In this document: piece by piece, positions 9,985 through 20,401 of the stretch
Layout: the number at the start of each line of letters is the position of its first letter
Position numbering within the stretch: the stretch's first letter is position 1
DNA from: Patescibacteria group bacterium
GTDB lineage: Bacteria; Patescibacteriota; Patescibacteriia; UBA11705; JABHMO01
Length of the DNA stretch: 25,606 bases
Assembly (NCBI GenBank): GCA_038062385.1
Contig: JBBTXH010000082.1
Location: forward strand, 3,749 to 29,354
Direction of reading: 5' to 3'
Notes under the pieces: generated by a model
What the model was told of the DNA's origin: nothing
Databases searched by the model: none
The model's input: the letters and a program-made list of their open reading frames with translations, nothing else
Program-made: the position numbers and the translations under genes

Positions 9985-10194
9985 TTATAAGCGTTTTAGA
10001 ACCTCATTGATTTCAACCCCGCCTTTTTTGATTTTTGTGAAATCAATCACTTCCTCCCAGGCTTCATCGTCAACCGGAGAAATTTTAAATATCGGTTCTG
10101 ATCGCCGAATGACGATAAACGATTCGCCGGCTTTGATTTTTTGGCGATAGGATTCTAGGTTTTCTCGTAAGGATTTTAGTTTGATGGTAGTCAT
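9985..10194 (-). CDS. Phd/YefM-family antitoxin
   Basis: MTTIKLKSLRENL..Y...I.AGESFIVIRRSEPIFKISP pattern with acidic tail. Confidence 0.82.
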   Translation of the reverse strand: MTTIKLKSLRENLESYRQKIKAGESFIVIRRSEPIFKISPVDDEAWEEVIDFTKIKKGGVEINEVLKRL

Positions 10195-10201
10195 GTTTTT
10201 C

Positions 10202-10253
10202 AAGTTAAACTTAAGGTTATCTTTAGTTTAACTTAATATTTTGGCGGTGTCAA
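10202..10253 (-). promoter_or_regulatory. TA promoter with overlapping palindromic operator
   Basis: TTGACA (10248-10253)-17-TAAACT (10225-10230); IR AAGTTAAACT 10202-10211 / AGTTTAACTT 10225-10234. Confidence 0.7.
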
Positions 10254-10301
10254 ATTTTAAAATGAAAAGCCCCAATATGATTATTGAGGCAACTTCTTGG
10301 G

Positions 10302-10514
10302 CTAGAAGGTGAGAAGAGCGCGAGGAATCCTCGGGGCGCAATAGAGAGCTTCCACCGCCGGATCAATCCCGTCAACATTTTCTCCTTCAATTCTCATCGA
10401 GGCGATCGCGCCGGTCACTATGGAATTAGCTATCATCTCGCGAAGTTCTTTTTCAGACAGATTAACCGTGACGTCCCCATCATCATCAGAAACGTGTATT
10501 TGGAAAGCAGACAT
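10302..10514 (-). CDS. Small protein with Fic-inhibitory SxxxEG motif (VbhA-like antitoxin candidate)
   Basis: AAGGAGG SD, ATG 10514, promoter TTGACA (10561-10566)-17-TAAACT; sequence contains GAIASMRIEG. Confidence 0.6.
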   Translation of the reverse strand: MSAFQIHVSDDDGDVTVNLSEKELREMIANSIVTGAIASMRIEGENVDGIDPAVEALYCAPRIPRALLTF

Positions 10515-14775: not shown

Positions 14776-14926
14776 GTGATTAGCGCACTGGCATTATGCA
14801 AGTCGCCGCCACTTATGTGGAAGCCACGCCCGTAGATTACTGCTCCTTATGAGCGCGTAATCACCAACGCCTTGTCGCATTTGCGCCTGCCAAGTTTCCC
14901 GGGCCGGGTTCTTGGCAACTAATCAC
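14776..14926 (-). ncRNA. Unassigned 151-nt structured RNA within tRNA operon
   Basis: 8-bp closing helix GTGATTAG/CTAATCAC, several internal helices; G-U pairs favour the minus strand. Confidence 0.6.
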
Positions 14927-14928
14927 AG

Positions 14929-15013
14929 AGGAAAGAGTGGGATTCGAACCCACGGAGGCTTTCACCTCTGCGGTTTAGTAGACCGCCGCCTTAAACCACT
15001 CGGCCATCTTTCC
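14929..15013 (-). tRNA. tRNA-Ser with ACT anticodon
   Basis: GGAAAGA/TCTTTCC acceptor, GCGGT CT ACT AA ACCGC, long variable arm, GTGGG TTCGAAT CCCAC. Confidence 0.9.
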
Positions 15014-15036: not shown

Positions 15037-15177
15037 AGGAGGGAGTGGGATTTTCATCTCGCCAGCGGGCGGGACGGGCTCCACGGGAGCTTTCACCCCA
15101 GTGGTTTTCAGGACCACCGCCTTAAGCCGCCCCGCCTTCGCATGAAGCTATGACGGGGCAAGCTCGGCCATCCCTCC
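15037..15177 (-). tRNA. tRNA-Ser(TGA) with D-loop and T-loop hairpin insertions (141 nt)
   Basis: GGAGGGA/TCCCTCC acceptor, GTGGT CCTGAAA ACCAC, variable arm GGGGTGAAAGCTCC; insertions at 15129-15161 and ~15055-15080. Confidence 0.8.
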
Positions 15178-15184
15178 TTTGATT

Positions 15185-15270
15185 CAGGGCTTGTGGTTCA
15201 GGGCTTGCCCTGAACCCGAACCGCACTTAGACTAGACAAAGAACTTGGAAAGGAAGTGAGTGGTTCAGGG
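15185..15270. repeat. Composite CTTG-footed hairpin element in tRNA spacer
   Basis: CTTG CCCTGAACC (15208-15216) ... GGTTCAGGG (15262-15270); reverse complement matches 23600-23639 at both ends. Confidence 0.75.
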
Positions 15271-15343
15271 TGCGCACCGCGGGGCTCGAACCCGCGACCT
15301 ACGGATTAAAAGTCCGGTGCTCTACCAACTGAGCTAGGTGCGC
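15271..15343 (-). tRNA. tRNA-Lys(TTT)
   Basis: GCGCACC/GGTGCGC, loop CTTTTAA, GCGGG TTCGAGC CCCGC. Confidence 0.95.
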
Positions 15344-15369
15344 GTTTCAAGGAACAATTAGAACTCGCA

Positions 15370-15398
15370 ATTATAGCATATCAGAAATTTATTGTCAA
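15370..15398 (-). promoter_or_regulatory. tRNA operon promoter
   Basis: Perfect TTGACA-17-TATAAT with extended -10 TG. Confidence 0.85.
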
Positions 15399-15534
15399 TA
15401 GAAGCGGTAAAATTTGTTGTAATTCTAGCAAAAAAGATTTTTATAACAAAATTATGTTTTGACAATTCTATTCTCATTGTGCTACGTTTAAATTGGTTCT
15501 TTGAGGACAAATAAACAGAAAGGAGATAAGCGAA

Positions 15535-15798
15535 ATGAATATCCCTGAATTTTCCATTGAGCATCGTTTGATCACAAGTTGGCTGAATGATTTTGATTAT
15601 TTGAGTTATGAAATGATCAAATCAGAGAAAACAGAATTTGAATCATCGGGACAAAATCCGAACGGCGTAGTACGTTTTGATTTCGACGTATCAGTGGACA
15701 TCAAGGGCGTGGGAAGAAGAGCTTTTCAACTTCGATTTGCCCGAGCAGGTACGTCGCTCAAGTTTCATGTGGTCTTTGAACGCGCTTTGGAAATTTAA
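15535..15798 (+). CDS. Hypothetical 87-aa protein
   Basis: AAGGAG SD, ATG, downstream terminator; no family recognised. Confidence 0.65.
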   Translation: MNIPEFSIEHRLITSWLNDFDYLSYEMIKSEKTEFESSGQNPNGVVRFDFDVSVDIKGVGRRAFQLRFARAGTSLKFHVVFERALEI

Positions 15799-15805
15799 AA
15801 AAACA

Positions 15806-15835
15806 CGACCTGTCACTACGGGTCGTTTTTTTATT
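15806..15835. terminator. Terminator between convergent genes
   Basis: ACGACC tgtcactacg GGTCGT flanked by A- and T-runs. Confidence 0.6.
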
Positions 15836-15866
15836 TTTGTTTTTTTACTTTGTTCGCCATAGCTCT

Positions 15867-17012
15867 TTAGCGAAGGCGGATATTTTTAAGTAAGGTCGCC
15901 ACTTCTTGCGCCGTCTTGTACCAATTAAATTCTTTCGCTTTTTTTAAACCCAACGAACGCCAATATTCAGCGTTTTCTTTTTTTGTCAGAATGTCCATTG
16001 CCTGAACAAGATCGTTTATATTGCACGGATCAATGAGCAGGGCCGCTTCTTGGCAAGTTTCCGAGAGAGAAGAATTGCTTGAAGTGATCACCGGGCAACC
16101 GCAGGCCATGGCTTCGAGAGGAGGGAAACCAAATCCTTCATAGAACGAAGGATAAACAAACATTGAAGCCAAATTATAAAAATATCGTTTTTCCGAATCT
16201 TTGATAAAACTAACAAATTTTATGTTTGGAGTCAGTTTGGCTGATTTTAATATTTTTTTGAATTTCCAGCCGAGTTTGCCGGCGATAACCAATGAATATT
16301 CGGGATGCTCTTGGTTGAAAAGTTCAAAAGCTGAAATTAAACTAGCCAAATTTTTTCGCGGTTCAATGGTGCCGAGGAAAAGAACGAATTTTTCCGGCAA
16401 ATTATATTTTTGTTTTATTTTTTTCAAGCGAACGTCATCAGTCGGAAGAATTTTATAATTCGCTGATAAACCGGAGTAGATGGTGTGAATTTTTGACGGC
16501 TCGATTTGATAATGGTTGATCAAGTCCTGTTTGGTGTTTTTGGAGATGGCAATAATTTGTTTGGCGTTTTTGAATAATTGCGCGGGGTTGACGAAATGGT
16601 GCCAGAATTTTCGTTTGAACGACAGAAATTCTGGAAAAAATTCATAACTTAAATCATGGGCGGTTAAAACATACGGGCAATTTGTTCGCAGAGAACAAAT
16701 GTTCGGGAAAAAGAAAAAATCAATTGGCGGAGTGTGATATATTTTTTGAATCCAAAGATCGAGTTTGGGGTATTTCAAAAACTTAATGGACAAATTAAGC
16801 AGTTTATTCGGCCAGTGAAAAACGCAATAATGAATGTTGGTTTTCGGAAATTTTGGAATGTATTTGGCCACGTCTTGGCGGGAATTGTAAAACAAAAAAT
16901 ATTCGTTGGTGTTATCAATTTCGAACAAATGTTTCAGTAAATTAAAAGTGTATTCGCCGACGCCGGTCAGTTCTTTTTCCATGAGACAGCGGATATCAAT
17001 GGCTATGTTCAT
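15867..17012 (-). CDS. Glycosyltransferase family 4
   Basis: MNIAIDIR start, TAHDL, FLGTIEPRKNL, YEGFGFPPLEAMACG. Confidence 0.94.
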   Translation of the reverse strand: MNIAIDIRCLMEKELTGVGEYTFNLLKHLFEIDNTNEYFLFYNSRQDVAKYIPKFPKTNIHYCVFHWPNKLLNLSIKFLKYPKLDLWIQKIYHTPPIDFFFFPNICSLRTNCPYVLTAHDLSYEFFPEFLSFKRKFWHHFVNPAQLFKNAKQIIAISKNTKQDLINHYQIEPSKIHTIYSGLSANYKILPTDDVRLKKIKQKYNLPEKFVLFLGTIEPRKNLASLISAFELFNQEHPEYSLVIAGKLGWKFKKILKSAKLTPNIKFVSFIKDSEKRYFYNLASMFVYPSFYEGFGFPPLEAMACGCPVITSSNSSLSETCQEAALLIDPCNINDLVQAMDILTKKENAEYWRSLGLKKAKEFNWYKTAQEVATLLKNIRLR

Positions 17013-17070
17013 AGAAGCATTTAAATAAAGAAGCACTAAAGCAACGAAGCAAGACAAGCGAGGTAAGCAA
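17012..17070. repeat. 8-nt-period AAGCA array at GT4 start
   Basis: tagaagca/tttaaata/aagaagca/ctaaagca/acgaagca, then two 9-nt units. Confidence 0.7.
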
Positions 17071-17072
17071 GA

Positions 17073-17138
17073 CCCTGCACCACAAATTGTTACACATTTG
17101 GGTTCAGGGCAAGCGAGCCCCGCAAAACTGTGCGGGGC
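17073..17138. repeat. CTTG-footed hairpin plus GCCCCGCA hairpin
   Basis: CCCTGCACC...GGTTCAGGGCAAG; GCCCCGCAAAACTGTGCGGGGC identical to 23636-23657. Confidence 0.75.
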
Positions 17139-17260
17139 GAGCGAGACGAGTGAAGTGAAAAAAAACTAAATTAAATTTTCATCCATACCCTCGTTTCCTT
17201 TTTATTCCCAGTCACCCCTCGCCAGTCTCAAACTAATCAGTAGAATCACGTAATGATCAG

Positions 17261-17299
17261 CTTGCCCTGTACTTAATATGAAATAATTATAGTACAGGG
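17261..17299 (+). repeat. CTTG-footed hairpin
   Basis: CTTG CCCTGTACT (17265-17273) ... AGTACAGGG (17291-17299). Confidence 0.6.
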
Positions 17300-17320
17300 T
17301 AGATCTGTATTACCTACAGC

Positions 17321-18418
17321 CTACCGCCCTACGTCCTGCATCTTGTTCACGATAAACTCTTTTATCTTCAGCTTGAATATTTCCGTGTCAAATTTTTCAG
17401 CATGGCTGCGGATTTCCTGCGGATTATAATCGAAAGGTTTAAACCGTAAAACCTTGTCAGCCAGATCCTCCCAGGTCTGTTCTTCGAACAAGACGCCGGT
17501 TTTGCCATCAACGACCGTTTCGAGCGCGCCGCCGGCGCGATAGGCAATGACCGGCCGGCCGCTGGCCATGGCTTCGACGCAAGTGATGCCGAAATCTTCC
17601 AACTGCGGGTTGATAAAAGCGCGGCATTCGCTAAATAACTTAGCTTTTTTTTCTTCGGAGATTTTTCCGAGAAATTCGATGTTATTTTTCGCTTCTTTTT
17701 TCAGTTTTTTGAATTGTGGACCATCACCGAATATCTTCAGAGGCAAATTCAACCGATTGAAGGCGGTAATCAAAAGATCAAAGCGTTTATAACCAACGAA
17801 TCTGCCGCCTGCGAGAAAATAGTTTCCAAGTTTATTGGAGATATAAAAATTTTTCGTTTCCACCGGCGGGTAAATGATTTCGCTGTCGCGGTGATAATAT
17901 TTTTTAATGCGTTTTTGCACTTCTTTTGAGTTGGCGATGAAGTGATCAACGCGCTCGGCCGCGATTTTGTCCCATTGCCGCAAGTTGGTCAGAACAAATG
18001 GCAGAACTGCTTTGATTAGAAAATTATGTTTCAATTCTTTCAGATAGTTATGGCTGTCGGTCCAGAGGAATCTAGCCGGCGTATGGCAGTAGCAGATATG
18101 AGTGGAGCCAGGACCCGGGATGATACCCTTTGAAAAAATAGAACACGAAGAAATAATCAATTTGTATTTGCCGAGATTGTGGTGCTCGGTGGCGCTGGGC
18201 ATGAGCGCGAGAGGCCACTCAAACCAATGGCTGGCGCCGGGGATTTTTTCAAGAAAAGAGGTTTTTATTTCATATTGATTGAATTCAGGATCAGCCTTTT
18301 TTTTGTTATGAAGTAACGTAAAAAGAGGACTGCCCGGGAAAATTTGCAGTAGAGTTTTGGCAACGCGTTCAGCGCCGCCGTCTTGTACGAGGTGGTCATG
18401 GACGATCGCAACGTTCAT
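17321..18418 (-). CDS. Glycosyltransferase family 4 (mannosyltransferase-like)
   Basis: VAIVHDHL...GGAERV, CYCHTPARFLW, EDFGITCVEAMASGRPVIA. Confidence 0.94.
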   Translation of the reverse strand: MNVAIVHDHLVQDGGAERVAKTLLQIFPGSPLFTLLHNKKKADPEFNQYEIKTSFLEKIPGASHWFEWPLALMPSATEHHNLGKYKLIISSCSIFSKGIIPGPGSTHICYCHTPARFLWTDSHNYLKELKHNFLIKAVLPFVLTNLRQWDKIAAERVDHFIANSKEVQKRIKKYYHRDSEIIYPPVETKNFYISNKLGNYFLAGGRFVGYKRFDLLITAFNRLNLPLKIFGDGPQFKKLKKEAKNNIEFLGKISEEKKAKLFSECRAFINPQLEDFGITCVEAMASGRPVIAYRAGGALETVVDGKTGVLFEEQTWEDLADKVLRFKPFDYNPQEIRSHAEKFDTEIFKLKIKEFIVNKMQDVGR

Positions 18419-18497
18419 ATGGTCATTAGGAGTATAAGTTTGCCCCCCTATATTACCAAAAGAAAAGCAGAATGGAAAGTGTATAGATTAAATCAAA

Positions 18498-18523
18498 ACA
18501 CATGGCTAAAACCATGTGTCTCT
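18498..18523. repeat. REP-like hairpin / possible terminator
   Basis: ACACATGG ctaaaa CCATGTGT followed by CTCT. Confidence 0.5.
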
Positions 18524-18544
18524 GAAAAAAATTAAACGGGGGAA

Positions 18545-19969
18545 TTAAACCTTGGATTTCCTGGTTAGAATGATCCACGGCGTTTTCAGGATAATCCAGA
18601 TGTCCAGCTTGAGCGACCAGTTTTCTATATAATAAGCGTCAAGTTTTACCTCTTCGTCAAAGTCTAGATCAGAGCGGCCGCTGATTTGCGCCAAGCCGGT
18701 TATTCCGGGTTTAATATCAAGGACGCGTTTGTGGTGTTTTTCATATTTTTCCACTTCGCGCGGTTGATGCGGTCTCGGACCCACTAAACTCATGTTGCCA
18801 ATCCAGACATTGAAAAGTTGAGGCAGTTCATCGAGGGAAGTTTTTTCGAGAAATCGGCCTATAGTCGTGCGGCGCGGATCATTCAAAATTTTATAAACCG
18901 GTCCGGTTCGTTCAGATTTTTCTTTGATTAATTTTTGTTCAAATTCCAAAGCGCTTTTTTGGTTGCCAAATTGTTTGCCGGTGCAATACTTGCTGTACAT
19001 TGATCTGAATTTGTAGACATTGAAGGTGCCTTTTCGATTTACGCGTTCGTTTTTGTAAATAGCCGGTCCTGAATCCTCCAGTTTAATGAGAATGGCGAGC
19101 ACGAGCAAGAGCGGGCTCAAAACAATAATGAAAATCGAACTGAAAATAAGATCAGTCAGCCGTTTAATGATTTTCAGCCAGCCGTCCAGCTTGGTTTTTT
19201 TTATTTCAATGAGTGGCACGCCGGCGATCATGTGCACTTCCACGTTCGTGGTGCGCGCTTCGAATTGTCCGGCCGCGTATTTGAAAATAATATTGTGCTC
19301 GGAGCAGAAGTCAGCGAGCGAGATGGAAACTTGGCGCGACAGAGTGGAGTCTGCTTGAATGATTTCATCAATACCATGCTTGCGGTGCAGTTCCAGTAAT
19401 TTTTGTTTATCGTTTTCATCAAATTCATTGATGCGGCCGATGATTTTGTAGCCGAGACCCGGCTCATTATTAAAAGTCTTTACGATTTCGACAGCGTCAT
19501 CATTATTGCCGATGATGACAATATTATGATTTCCCCAGCCGGCTTTAAAACAGAGATTTTGGATTTTTCTAATGAGCGTTCTGATTATTATTATCATGAA
19601 AATACTGAGAATCCAGGCGGTGAGCAGAATGAAGCGCGAAGAAAACATTTCTCTCACGAAAAACATGTAAATAATGACGGCCGTCATGCCGGTGGAGCAG
19701 GCCAGAATAATTTTCGCCAATTCGTCCGTGATTTTTCTTCGTTTGAATGAATAAAGTCCGGCCCAAGCGAAAAAGATGAGCCAGCTGGCGCTGACAATGA
19801 TCGTAACTAGAAAATATTTATCAAATGTTAAATCAAAAATGACCGGTCGAATTTCTTGGATCGATTGTTCATAACGAATGAAATACGCGATGATGCCCGC
19901 CGCGATCAAAGTCAGATAATCCAGCGGAATTTTCAAAAAAGTAAAAAAAAGTTCTGCGTTTTTTTTCAT
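18545..19969 (-). CDS. Polyprenyl-phosphate hexose-1-phosphate transferase (WcaJ/WbaP-like sugar transferase)
   Basis: Four N-terminal TMs plus one later TM; KFRSM, LDELPQLFNV, GPRP, KPGITGLAQISGRSDL, DAYYIENWS. Confidence 0.93.
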   Translation of the reverse strand: MKKNAELFFTFLKIPLDYLTLIAAGIIAYFIRYEQSIQEIRPVIFDLTFDKYFLVTIIVSASWLIFFAWAGLYSFKRRKITDELAKIILACSTGMTAVIIYMFFVREMFSSRFILLTAWILSIFMIIIIRTLIRKIQNLCFKAGWGNHNIVIIGNNDDAVEIVKTFNNEPGLGYKIIGRINEFDENDKQKLLELHRKHGIDEIIQADSTLSRQVSISLADFCSEHNIIFKYAAGQFEARTTNVEVHMIAGVPLIEIKKTKLDGWLKIIKRLTDLIFSSIFIIVLSPLLLVLAILIKLEDSGPAIYKNERVNRKGTFNVYKFRSMYSKYCTGKQFGNQKSALEFEQKLIKEKSERTGPVYKILNDPRRTTIGRFLEKTSLDELPQLFNVWIGNMSLVGPRPHQPREVEKYEKHHKRVLDIKPGITGLAQISGRSDLDFDEEVKLDAYYIENWSLKLDIWIILKTPWIILTRKSKV

Positions 19970-20079
19970 ATTTCAGAAAATAATTGATGAATGAATATAT
20001 TATAACAGTTATTATGCGGAATGTCGATTTTTAAAAAATAAAAAAACACCAATTTTTACAATTGCTGTTTTTTAATGTC

Positions 20080-20401
20080 CCAAACAAGCGAATAAGCCGG
20101 ATTCTGTTTTAACTGTCATCTATCTTGTCCCGCAATCGCTGGAGAGATCATGCGGGCTACCAAATTTGCCCTTGCACCCAAGTAAGGGTTTAGCCGTTTC
20201 ACTCCCACCTTCGCATAAAGCTACGGTGGGACTAATCCCGAAGGATCCCAAGAACCTCGCGGTCTTGGCGTCTCTGCTCGCACCTCTATCTCACGACCGA
20301 CAGGGATTACCTGCTACTCGCGTCAATTTAATGGCTAGGTGTCCGGACTTTCCTCTCCCCGTAGCTTTACGCGAAGGGGAGCGACAGAACTGCTTGTTTG
20401 G
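20080..20401 (-). ncRNA. rnpB: RNase P RNA (type A-like)
   Basis: P1 CCAAACAAGC/GCTTGTTTGG; conserved GAGGAAAGTCCGGAC and AAACAGAATCCGGCTTA P4 halves. Confidence 0.95.

Follow-up and report, generated by a model that had tools for sequence, protein, structure and literature searches.

A small palindromic hairpin repeat in RNase P RNA, tRNA and protein genes of a Patescibacteria genome

Four related hairpins are found in a 25,606-nucleotide stretch of DNA from a Patescibacteria group bacterium (assembly GCA_038062385.1, contig JBBTXH010000082.1, positions 3,749 to 29,354; hereafter the window): two in rnpB, which encodes RNase P RNA, one in a gene for tRNA-Ser(UGA), and one across the stop codon of a gene for a GT4 glycosyltransferase. 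They are very probably copies of a single small (~30–37 nt), non-autonomous palindromic DNA repeat of the kind represented by repetitive extragenic palindromic (REP) sequences and Rickettsia palindromic elements (RPEs), spread at the level of DNA. The hairpins constitute a family with defined unit boundaries, the members of which are present or absent at orthologous sites, stand in both orientations, nest within one another, and occur across phyla. Copies would persist where the harm is small, that is, just downstream of stop codons, in protein segments that tolerate an in-frame insert, and at the tips of peripheral RNA helices and loops. The loop that is shared by different stems would accordingly reflect common descent of the copies combined with compensated changes in the stems, rather than a function of the loop in the host RNAs.

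The hairpin unit and its copies in the host genome

The core of the hairpin, TTCGCRTRAAGCTAY, has three exact matches in the window (15137–15151, +; 20210–20224, +; 20361–20375, −) and none in 100 dinucleotide-preserving shuffles of the window. In rnpB, the flanking arms are TCCCACC/GGTGGGA (20203–20231) and CTCCCC/GGGGAG (20355–20381); in the tRNA gene they are GCCCCGCC/GACGGGGC (15129–15159), with a C·A mismatch on the forward strand that corresponds to a U·G pair on the tRNA strand. The fourth site is a variant copy, TCCGCC/TTCGCTAAAGAGCTAT/GGCGAA with the tail CAAA (15849–15880, −), which overlaps the 3′ end of the open reading frame (ORF) for the GT4 glycosyltransferase (15867–17057, −; listed as an ORF, with the Pfam domains Glycos_transf_1 and Glyco_transf_4), and supplies its last three codons (R L R) and TAA stop. 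An earlier reading of this DNA made from the letters alone (the sequence-only reading) had pointed out all four sites, and its positions, arms, and codons are borne out. Membership of one hairpin family would account at once for the identical loops in rnpB, a tRNA gene that cannot be called, and a stop codon within a hairpin.

The host genome (G000; 1.08 Mb, 41% G+C, 152 contigs) was searched with a structural pattern consisting of a 6-bp stem ending in CC, NNCGC, 2–8 nt, GCTNN, and a stem starting with GG. This pattern gives a family size of 29–33 copies, compared with 0–1 in shuffled genomes; the genome-wide search that the sequence-only reading had proposed as a check thus returned ~33 dispersed copies, including one in an intron of the 23S rRNA gene. 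The consensus is YCNGCC / NNCGC-URRR-GCTAY / GGCNGR, followed by CAGG, CAAG, or CAAA; 14 of the 31 unique copies have either CAGG or CAAG as the tail. Compensated changes are found at stem positions 1, 3, and 4, where CG, TA, AT, and GC pairs are all represented. Each unit of ~30–37 nt comprises a GC-rich 6-bp stem, a loop of 14–15 nt, the stem complement, and a 3′ CARG tail. The loop is itself a mismatched mini-hairpin (a 3 × 3 mismatch, a GC/GC pair of pairs, and a URRR tetraloop), in which G4–C11 and C5–G10 can pair around URRR and positions 3/12 are always C/T, such that the mismatches are conserved features of a single long hairpin. The bases 5′ of the unit are not fixed, being GCT in nested copies and ATTA, AATA, ACAA, or TAA elsewhere, and the copies match no Rfam family at gathering score or at E ≤ 1. 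The stems, which had been described as unrelated, therefore conform to a family consensus with compensated changes; and, although the loop is indeed shared, as the sequence-only reading held, the repeated unit is stem, loop, stem, and CARG tail, and not the loop by itself.

Approximately 10 copies lie 0–50 nt past the stop codon of a co-directional ORF, and three near stop codons in the opposite orientation. ORFs followed by a copy include those for a D-Ala-D-Ala carboxypeptidase, Der/EngA, an RsmI-like methylase, WecG-NUDIX, a deoxynucleoside kinase, and the GT4 glycosyltransferase. Five copies are intragenic (in TsaD, a Mur ligase, PrmC, a cytidylyltransferase ORF, and one further ORF). For TsaD, alignment identifies an 18-residue in-frame insert, SGFPPSLKLWRTRLSGMT, that is missing in five family-level relatives, and the 54 nt that encode it recur intergenically behind the WecG-NUDIX gene on another contig. 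Two copies abut tRNA genes: one is 3′ of tRNA-Val, where the CCA of the tRNA forms the first three bases of the stem CCAGCC, and one is just upstream of tRNA-Gly, in reverse orientation. Another copy, also reversed, is located in an ORF-bearing (putatively group-I-like) 23S rRNA intron, ~30 nt short of the 3′ end of the intron.

Together with this intron copy, the two in rnpB and the one in tRNA-Ser give four copies of 33 in stable-RNA genes, which make up about one-tenth of the non-protein-coding DNA. This is approximately the share expected from tolerance, so targeting need not be invoked. Of the proposal that the hairpin is a mobile element that targets, or is tolerated in, the loops of structured RNAs, the tolerance part is therefore upheld, by the dispersed copies, the presence and absence in tRNA and TsaD, the varied helices of rnpB, and the nesting; the targeting part is not.

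Some further features of the host genome were noted around the copies. An additional copy, CCCACC TTCGCTAAAGCTAT GG..., is interrupted by ten consecutive N (C142:7700–7740), probably an assembly gap caused by the repeat. A copy on C54 was considered as a second interrupted tRNA and discarded, as its flanks form no tRNA. Tandem arrays of short period (6–8 nt) often flank copies, both in the host genome (C77, ~10150–10320) and in Bacteroidales metagenome-assembled genomes (MAGs; loci from other phyla, L109, L125, L132, L172). On C53 (L001), ~250 nt from a copy enclosed by a larger terminator-like hairpin, a tRNA-like stretch (1188–1260) has weak tmRNA and mascRNA matches (E 0.003–0.5) and no ARAGORN call. 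The 23S rRNA gene on C9 (L005, 1–4581) contains a group I intron (RF00028, 1514–1730) and at least two more insertions bearing ORFs of 166–205 residues; given a 23S rRNA gene broken in this way, the genome looks like one from the Candidate Phyla Radiation (CPR)/Patescibacteria.

Copies within rnpB and tRNA-Ser(UGA)

The rnpB gene (20077–20400, −) is a full-length match to bacterial type A RNase P RNA (RF00010, 104.8 bits), and orthologues are present in 40 of 41 relatives. A copy is termed forward (F) if UUCGC...GCUAC is read on the RNA, and reverse (R) if the reverse complement is. The copy that caps P3 is F, CUCCCC/UUCGCGUAAAGCUAC/GGGGAG (20355–20381, −), and aligns to P3 of RF00010. The second copy is R, UCCCACC/GUAGCUUUAUGCGAA/GGUGGGA (20203–20231, −), and falls in a part of the specificity domain not aligned by Rfam, where three hairpins separate J11/12 from the conserved GUGAAACGG (P12–P14 region) and this copy caps the third; named by order only, it is P14 if these three hairpins are P12, P13, and P14. 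At this site, seven close family-level relatives have a GAAA or GCAA tetraloop. The copy probably replaces this GNRA loop that relatives have kept, with loss of the contact that the loop makes. CPR RNase P RNAs that lack P13/P14 and other helices have been described (PMC8172020), and such helix losses make it plausible that insertions in rnpB are tolerated.

The rnpB genes of several relatives also carry the hairpin, at varied positions. P3 bears an F copy in G003 and an R copy in G008, which has a second R copy as well. G007 has three copies (two F, one R), and G006 has a single R copy. In G017, an F copy followed by a GACAGG tail is close to the 3′ end; in G038, the P12 region contains an R copy whose loop matches that of the host exactly, alongside a degenerate P3 form. 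A Paceibacterota MAG has an F copy before ACAGAAUUCGG. Aside from G003 and G008, the P3 loops of relatives are unrelated to the hairpin. Comparison of rnpB with relatives, another check put forward in the sequence-only reading, thus places the module on different helices in either orientation and finds the sites used in the host genome empty of it in close relatives.

The two loops in the host rnpB are complementary over 15 nt, with one G·U pair, and both the minimum-free-energy and centroid folds join the two copies in a ~27-bp helix. This could be taken to mean that the loops pair with each other as a new tertiary contact, or that the P3 loop pairs with the loop in pre-tRNA-Ser as an enzyme–substrate contact; we regard both as barely credible, given that the complementarity is not conserved (G008 has two copies in the same orientation, G003, G006, G017, and G038 one clear copy each, and G007 three), that the predicted helix is incompatible with P3 and P4 and would destroy that region, and that opposite orientation of two insertions is a one-in-two chance. 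Kissing loops within rnpB were rejected on account of the relatives with same-orientation pairs or single copies. Because the two inverted copies favor the long-range helix, the native fold would have to depend on local, co-transcriptional formation of the hairpins. A pseudoknot between loop UUCGC and a 3′ flank GCGAA was also considered and is sterically implausible by reasoning, having zero linker on one side and 3–4 nt to span the 6-bp stem on the other.

The gene for tRNA-Ser(UGA) (15037–15177, −) is interrupted in both the D-loop and the T-loop, as identified by alignment with tRNA-Ser(UGA) of the relative G009; the five tRNAs that ARAGORN and Rfam detect in the window do not include it. 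In G009, tRNA-Ser(UGA) belongs to a syntenic cluster with tRNA-Lys, tRNA-Ser(ACU), and further tRNAs, and rnpB is ~5 kb away, as in the window; the anticodon arm of the two tRNA-Ser(UGA) orthologues is 97.5% identical. The D-loop contains a 33-nt unit (stem, loop TTCGCATGAAGCTAT, stem, and tail CAA/G; 15129–15161, +) between positions 16 and 17/18, antisense to the tRNA; folding of the tRNA strand likewise predicts the hairpin. The insertion, including its tail, is missing in the syntenic tRNA of G009 and in tRNA-Ser(UGA) of G015 and G001. A second GC hairpin of ~27 nt, UCCCGCC CGCU GGCGAGA (15054–15080, −), replaces T-loop positions 53–56. Mini-hairpins with a similar CGCT loop occur elsewhere in the genome, and the T-loop hairpin is possibly a truncated relative of the family.

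Inserts in both the D-loop and T-loop should disturb the elbow of the tRNA. Furthermore, no second Ser(UGA) gene was found by blastn of the whole genome in its 152 contigs, and UCA is the most used Ser codon (13.4 per 1000). These observations would be accounted for if the inserts in the tRNA, and perhaps those in rnpB, were intron-like and removed from the RNA. We consider this highly improbable: there is no ribozyme core or bulge–helix–bulge motif, and no Rfam intron match at the tRNA, and the same unit is translated in frame within ORFs. In addition, tRNA-Asn was not found by ARAGORN in the 152 contigs despite a marker completeness given as 100%, so the assembly may merely lack an intact Ser(UGA) gene that the genome has, or detection may be incomplete.

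The tRNA-Ser(UGA) genes of the host and G009 (L043 1502–1587, −) share a C33 (loop CCUGAAA) in place of the near-universal U33. An intact tRNA-Ser(ACU) with A34 is encoded adjacently in the window (14928–15013, −) and in the G009 cluster (L043 1609–1694, −); its presence in both genomes makes it a feature of the lineage. A tRNA-Ser(GCU) is encoded on C39 of the host genome. Between tRNA-Ser(ACU) and tRNA-Gln in the window is a GC-rich element of 151 nt (14776–14926, −) with the closing helix GUGAUUAG...CUAAUCAC; it is not a tRNA, has no Rfam match, and includes a mini-hairpin followed by ACAAGG, which resembles the tail of the family.

Distribution beyond the host genome and candidate movers

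For relatives, a narrower pattern (GCC..CGCT..GCTWY GGC) was used, with the reversed pattern as control. It is found in 26 of 41 relatives, with 0–21 copies per genome compared with 0–1 for the control, and covers almost all genomes of the order and some of the class. In G017, the same CCA-containing stem follows both tRNA-Val and tRNA-Ile, and among the relatives an R copy precedes a tRNA-Phe. Units are nested in the T|AAA tetraloop of other units (L091, L088, L092), up to three deep in G038 (L091), and the nested inner unit brings its own CAGG tail. G022 has five near-identical composites of at least 100 nt on four contigs, a sign of recent amplification. Additionally, two G022 loci (L079, L080) contain tandem units of ~96–164 nt; in each, a larger conserved structure carries one inserted copy flanked by GCT and AAAGC, and this could represent either a structured RNA in several copies or a composite repeat.

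The exact 20-mer formed by the core and GCC/GGC occurs in at least 120 contigs (one genome per species scanned). Among the matches listed are Bacteroidota, Acidobacteriota, Verrucomicrobiota, Alpha-, Gamma-, and Deltaproteobacteria, Planctomycetota, Nitrospirota, Omnitrophota, Bdellovibrionota, Armatimonadota, Actinomycetota, and several CPR phyla. In 80 of the listed loci (83 copies), the arms are usually 5–8 bp with the same YCNGCC pattern, and most tails read CAAG or CAGG; in one Sphingomonadales locus, a copy with the CCAGCC stem is again found 3′ of a tRNA. Five non-CPR genomes contain 3–22 copies of the narrower pattern, including the isolate Niastella soli (22) and a complete Maricaulis chromosome; controls gave 0–1 in four of the five genomes, and 4 and 3 in a Vicinamibacteria MAG. 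Plasmid and phage collections gave matches at chance level only. We found no paper that names or describes the sequence, and a search with sequence words retrieved only unrelated primers.

The hairpin has several features of a substrate for HUH/Y1 enzymes: it can fold in single-stranded DNA, has conserved mismatches and a tetranucleotide at its foot, shows no target duplication, and prefers hairpin tips. Tentatively, therefore, it might move as single-stranded DNA by means of an enzyme supplied in trans, possibly a Y1 transposase similar to the REP-associated tyrosine transposases (RAYTs). In Y1 HUH transposition of the palindrome-associated transposable elements (PATEs) of the IS200/IS605 type, a hairpin and a nearby tetranucleotide are recognized in a single-stranded DNA substrate, and no target duplication is generated. 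These elements have two distinct subterminal hairpins (LE and RE) and a fixed target tetranucleotide, in contrast to the single hairpin and variable 5′ flank of the present family.

Candidates for the mover were sought among the neighboring genes. The sole RAYT-like gene of the host genome encodes a Y1 transposase of 180 residues with an HxH motif on a 1.1-kb contig (C98:1–1123; L078), which at that size could be foreign. The gene lies between inverted repeats, GTTCCCAAGC-N4-GCTTGGGAAC, that are unrelated to the hairpin and found nowhere else in the genome; a RAYT/Y1 enzyme was dismissed as the mover on the grounds of this unrelated palindrome, the lack of adjacency to copies, and the lack of co-distribution. 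Tiny GIY-YIG ORFs (84–112 residues) beside tRNA genes (C130:2220–2845, C21:2517–2732, C39:1113–1325, C18:1546–1755) were likewise dismissed, as they are flanked by other GC hairpins with TCCGCC/GGCGGA arms and 3–4-nt loops that do not belong to this family. Among the 120 loci listed across phyla, the only genes that recur near copies are those for ABC ATPases, histidine kinases, and aminotransferases.

Interpretation and comparison with known repeats

Several lines of evidence indicate an element that acts at the level of DNA. A single selected transcript strand would tolerate G·U pairs on that strand only; the stem mismatches are G·T vs. A·C on the F strand in ratios of 2:4 (host genome), 2:3 (relatives), and 16:11 (across phyla), and this lack of asymmetry means that no single strand is favored. 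The symmetric mismatches, the presence of both orientations in RNAs, the in-frame copies in proteins, and the nesting therefore argue for a DNA-level element. The sequence-only reading had alternatively proposed a protein-binding tag added to stable RNAs; this does not hold, as most copies are behind or inside protein genes, and those in RNAs have both orientations and stems with symmetric mismatches. We also looked for an orientation-specific RNA tertiary or protein-binding module (tetraloop receptor, K-turn, or loop E), and found both orientations in the rnpB genes of relatives; on inspection, neither the K-turn nor the 11-nt tetraloop receptor fits the consensus.

Against a REP/RPE-like repeat spread as DNA stand the following observations. 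The P3 copy in rnpB is not explained by simple insertion of a whole unit, since compared with relatives the differences are confined to the loop and inner bases of the stem, with no extra stem and no tail. Y1/RAYT-like genes (PF01797) never adjoin copies in the host genome, the 41 relatives, or the five other genomes; the hairpin-rich relatives have no close orthologue of the RAYT-like gene of the host, and its homologues do not track hairpin counts; and no recurrent neighbor resembling a mover is found among the 120 listed loci. Public metagenomes yielded no empty site at the level of strains, and contigs in them from the same population keep the insertions; rnpB joints in public reads, which were considered as empty sites, derive from the divergent P12–P14 regions of other organisms. 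The sense bias of ~10:3 for copies near stop codons is also predicted by an RNA role at mRNA 3′ ends. Finally, a near-identical 14-nt loop across phyla is unusual for REP families, and could mean a conserved function.

Some of these points bear on the alternative that the hairpin is a functional RNA module (a protein-binding site, a 3′-end stabilizer, or a processing signal) that stable RNAs, tRNA trailers, and the ends of mRNAs have acquired on repeated occasions. Conservation of loop and tail across many phyla is consistent with such a module, as are the ~10 of 13 copies near stop codons that have the sense orientation and the stem CCAGCC that follows four tRNA genes in three lineages with its first three bases serving as the tRNA CCA end. 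It is nonetheless improbable in light of the both-way orientation inside rnpB, tRNA, and intron RNAs, the in-frame copies in proteins and copies within copies, the symmetry of G·T and A·C mismatches with neither transcript strand preferred, and the absence of the hairpin at the same RNA sites in close relatives.

A further interpretation is that of an ancient cross-phylum element that is moved or maintained by a conserved cellular function that keeps the loop and CARG tail, rather than by a dedicated transposase; under it, essential RNAs here would work with the element aboard (tRNA-Ser(UGA) with two hairpins in the elbow, and RNase P RNA avoiding the 27-bp misfold). We view this as fairly unlikely, and retain a non-autonomous palindromic repeat of the REP/RPE kind as the preferred explanation.

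The closest known systems include REPs. REPs of the Escherichia coli type (GTAG-3) and the present family are both imperfect palindromes of 20–40 bp with compensated stem changes (Di Nocera et al., 2013; PMC3733652). GTAG-3 REPs also share the architecture of the present unit, with an outer stem, unpaired trinucleotides, a GC/GC inner stem, a short loop, and a tetranucleotide at the end (PMC3733652). Copies of both are mostly downstream of genes, with some intragenic. The REP tag is GTAG or CGTC, whereas the tail in the present family is CARG (CYTG on the other strand) and a GTAG-like word lies inside the loop; neither CTTG nor CAAG is mentioned as a REP tag in the survey of Di Nocera et al. 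(PMC3733652). In REP/REPIN–RAYT systems the cognate RAYT is flanked by copies, unlike in the present family, where none of the RAYT-like genes examined is flanked by copies. REP families are usually specific to a lineage, whereas the core described here is common to many phyla and its copies nest in their own tetraloop.

RPEs, like the present family, are palindromic repeats found in frame in protein genes and in RNA genes; of the 728 RPEs of R. felis, 85 lie within ORFs and three within RNA genes (PMC1166351). They are ~100–150 bp in length, restricted to Rickettsia, and unrelated in sequence, whereas the present units are ~30–37 nt (composites ~54–100 nt) and occur in many phyla. STRR repeats were reportedly found by Vioque in 1997 (as cited in PMC2858038) in the RNase P RNA gene of heterocystous cyanobacteria. 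The likeness consists in a dispersed repeat in a peripheral helix of rnpB that does not abolish the gene; STRRs, however, are tandem heptamers with no conserved-loop hairpin. Yeast mitochondrial GC clusters are also short, GC-rich mobile hairpins in a small AT-rich genome (PMC4478555), although they are organellar and apparently unrelated in sequence to the present hairpin.

The hairpin is thus a new family of a known, REP/RPE-like kind, notable for its spread across phyla and for the genes that it has entered. For annotation, it means that tRNA and RNase P finders miss or under-score genes with such inserts. Its entry into structured RNAs and essential proteins of a ~1-Mb genome goes beyond a routine REP family, and the recurrence of core, stem pattern, and tail across phyla (including Niastella soli and Maricaulis) raises the question of what moves or preserves it. 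The sole tRNA found for the commonest Ser codon is interrupted twice at the elbow; either the expanded tRNA functions or the inserts are removed.

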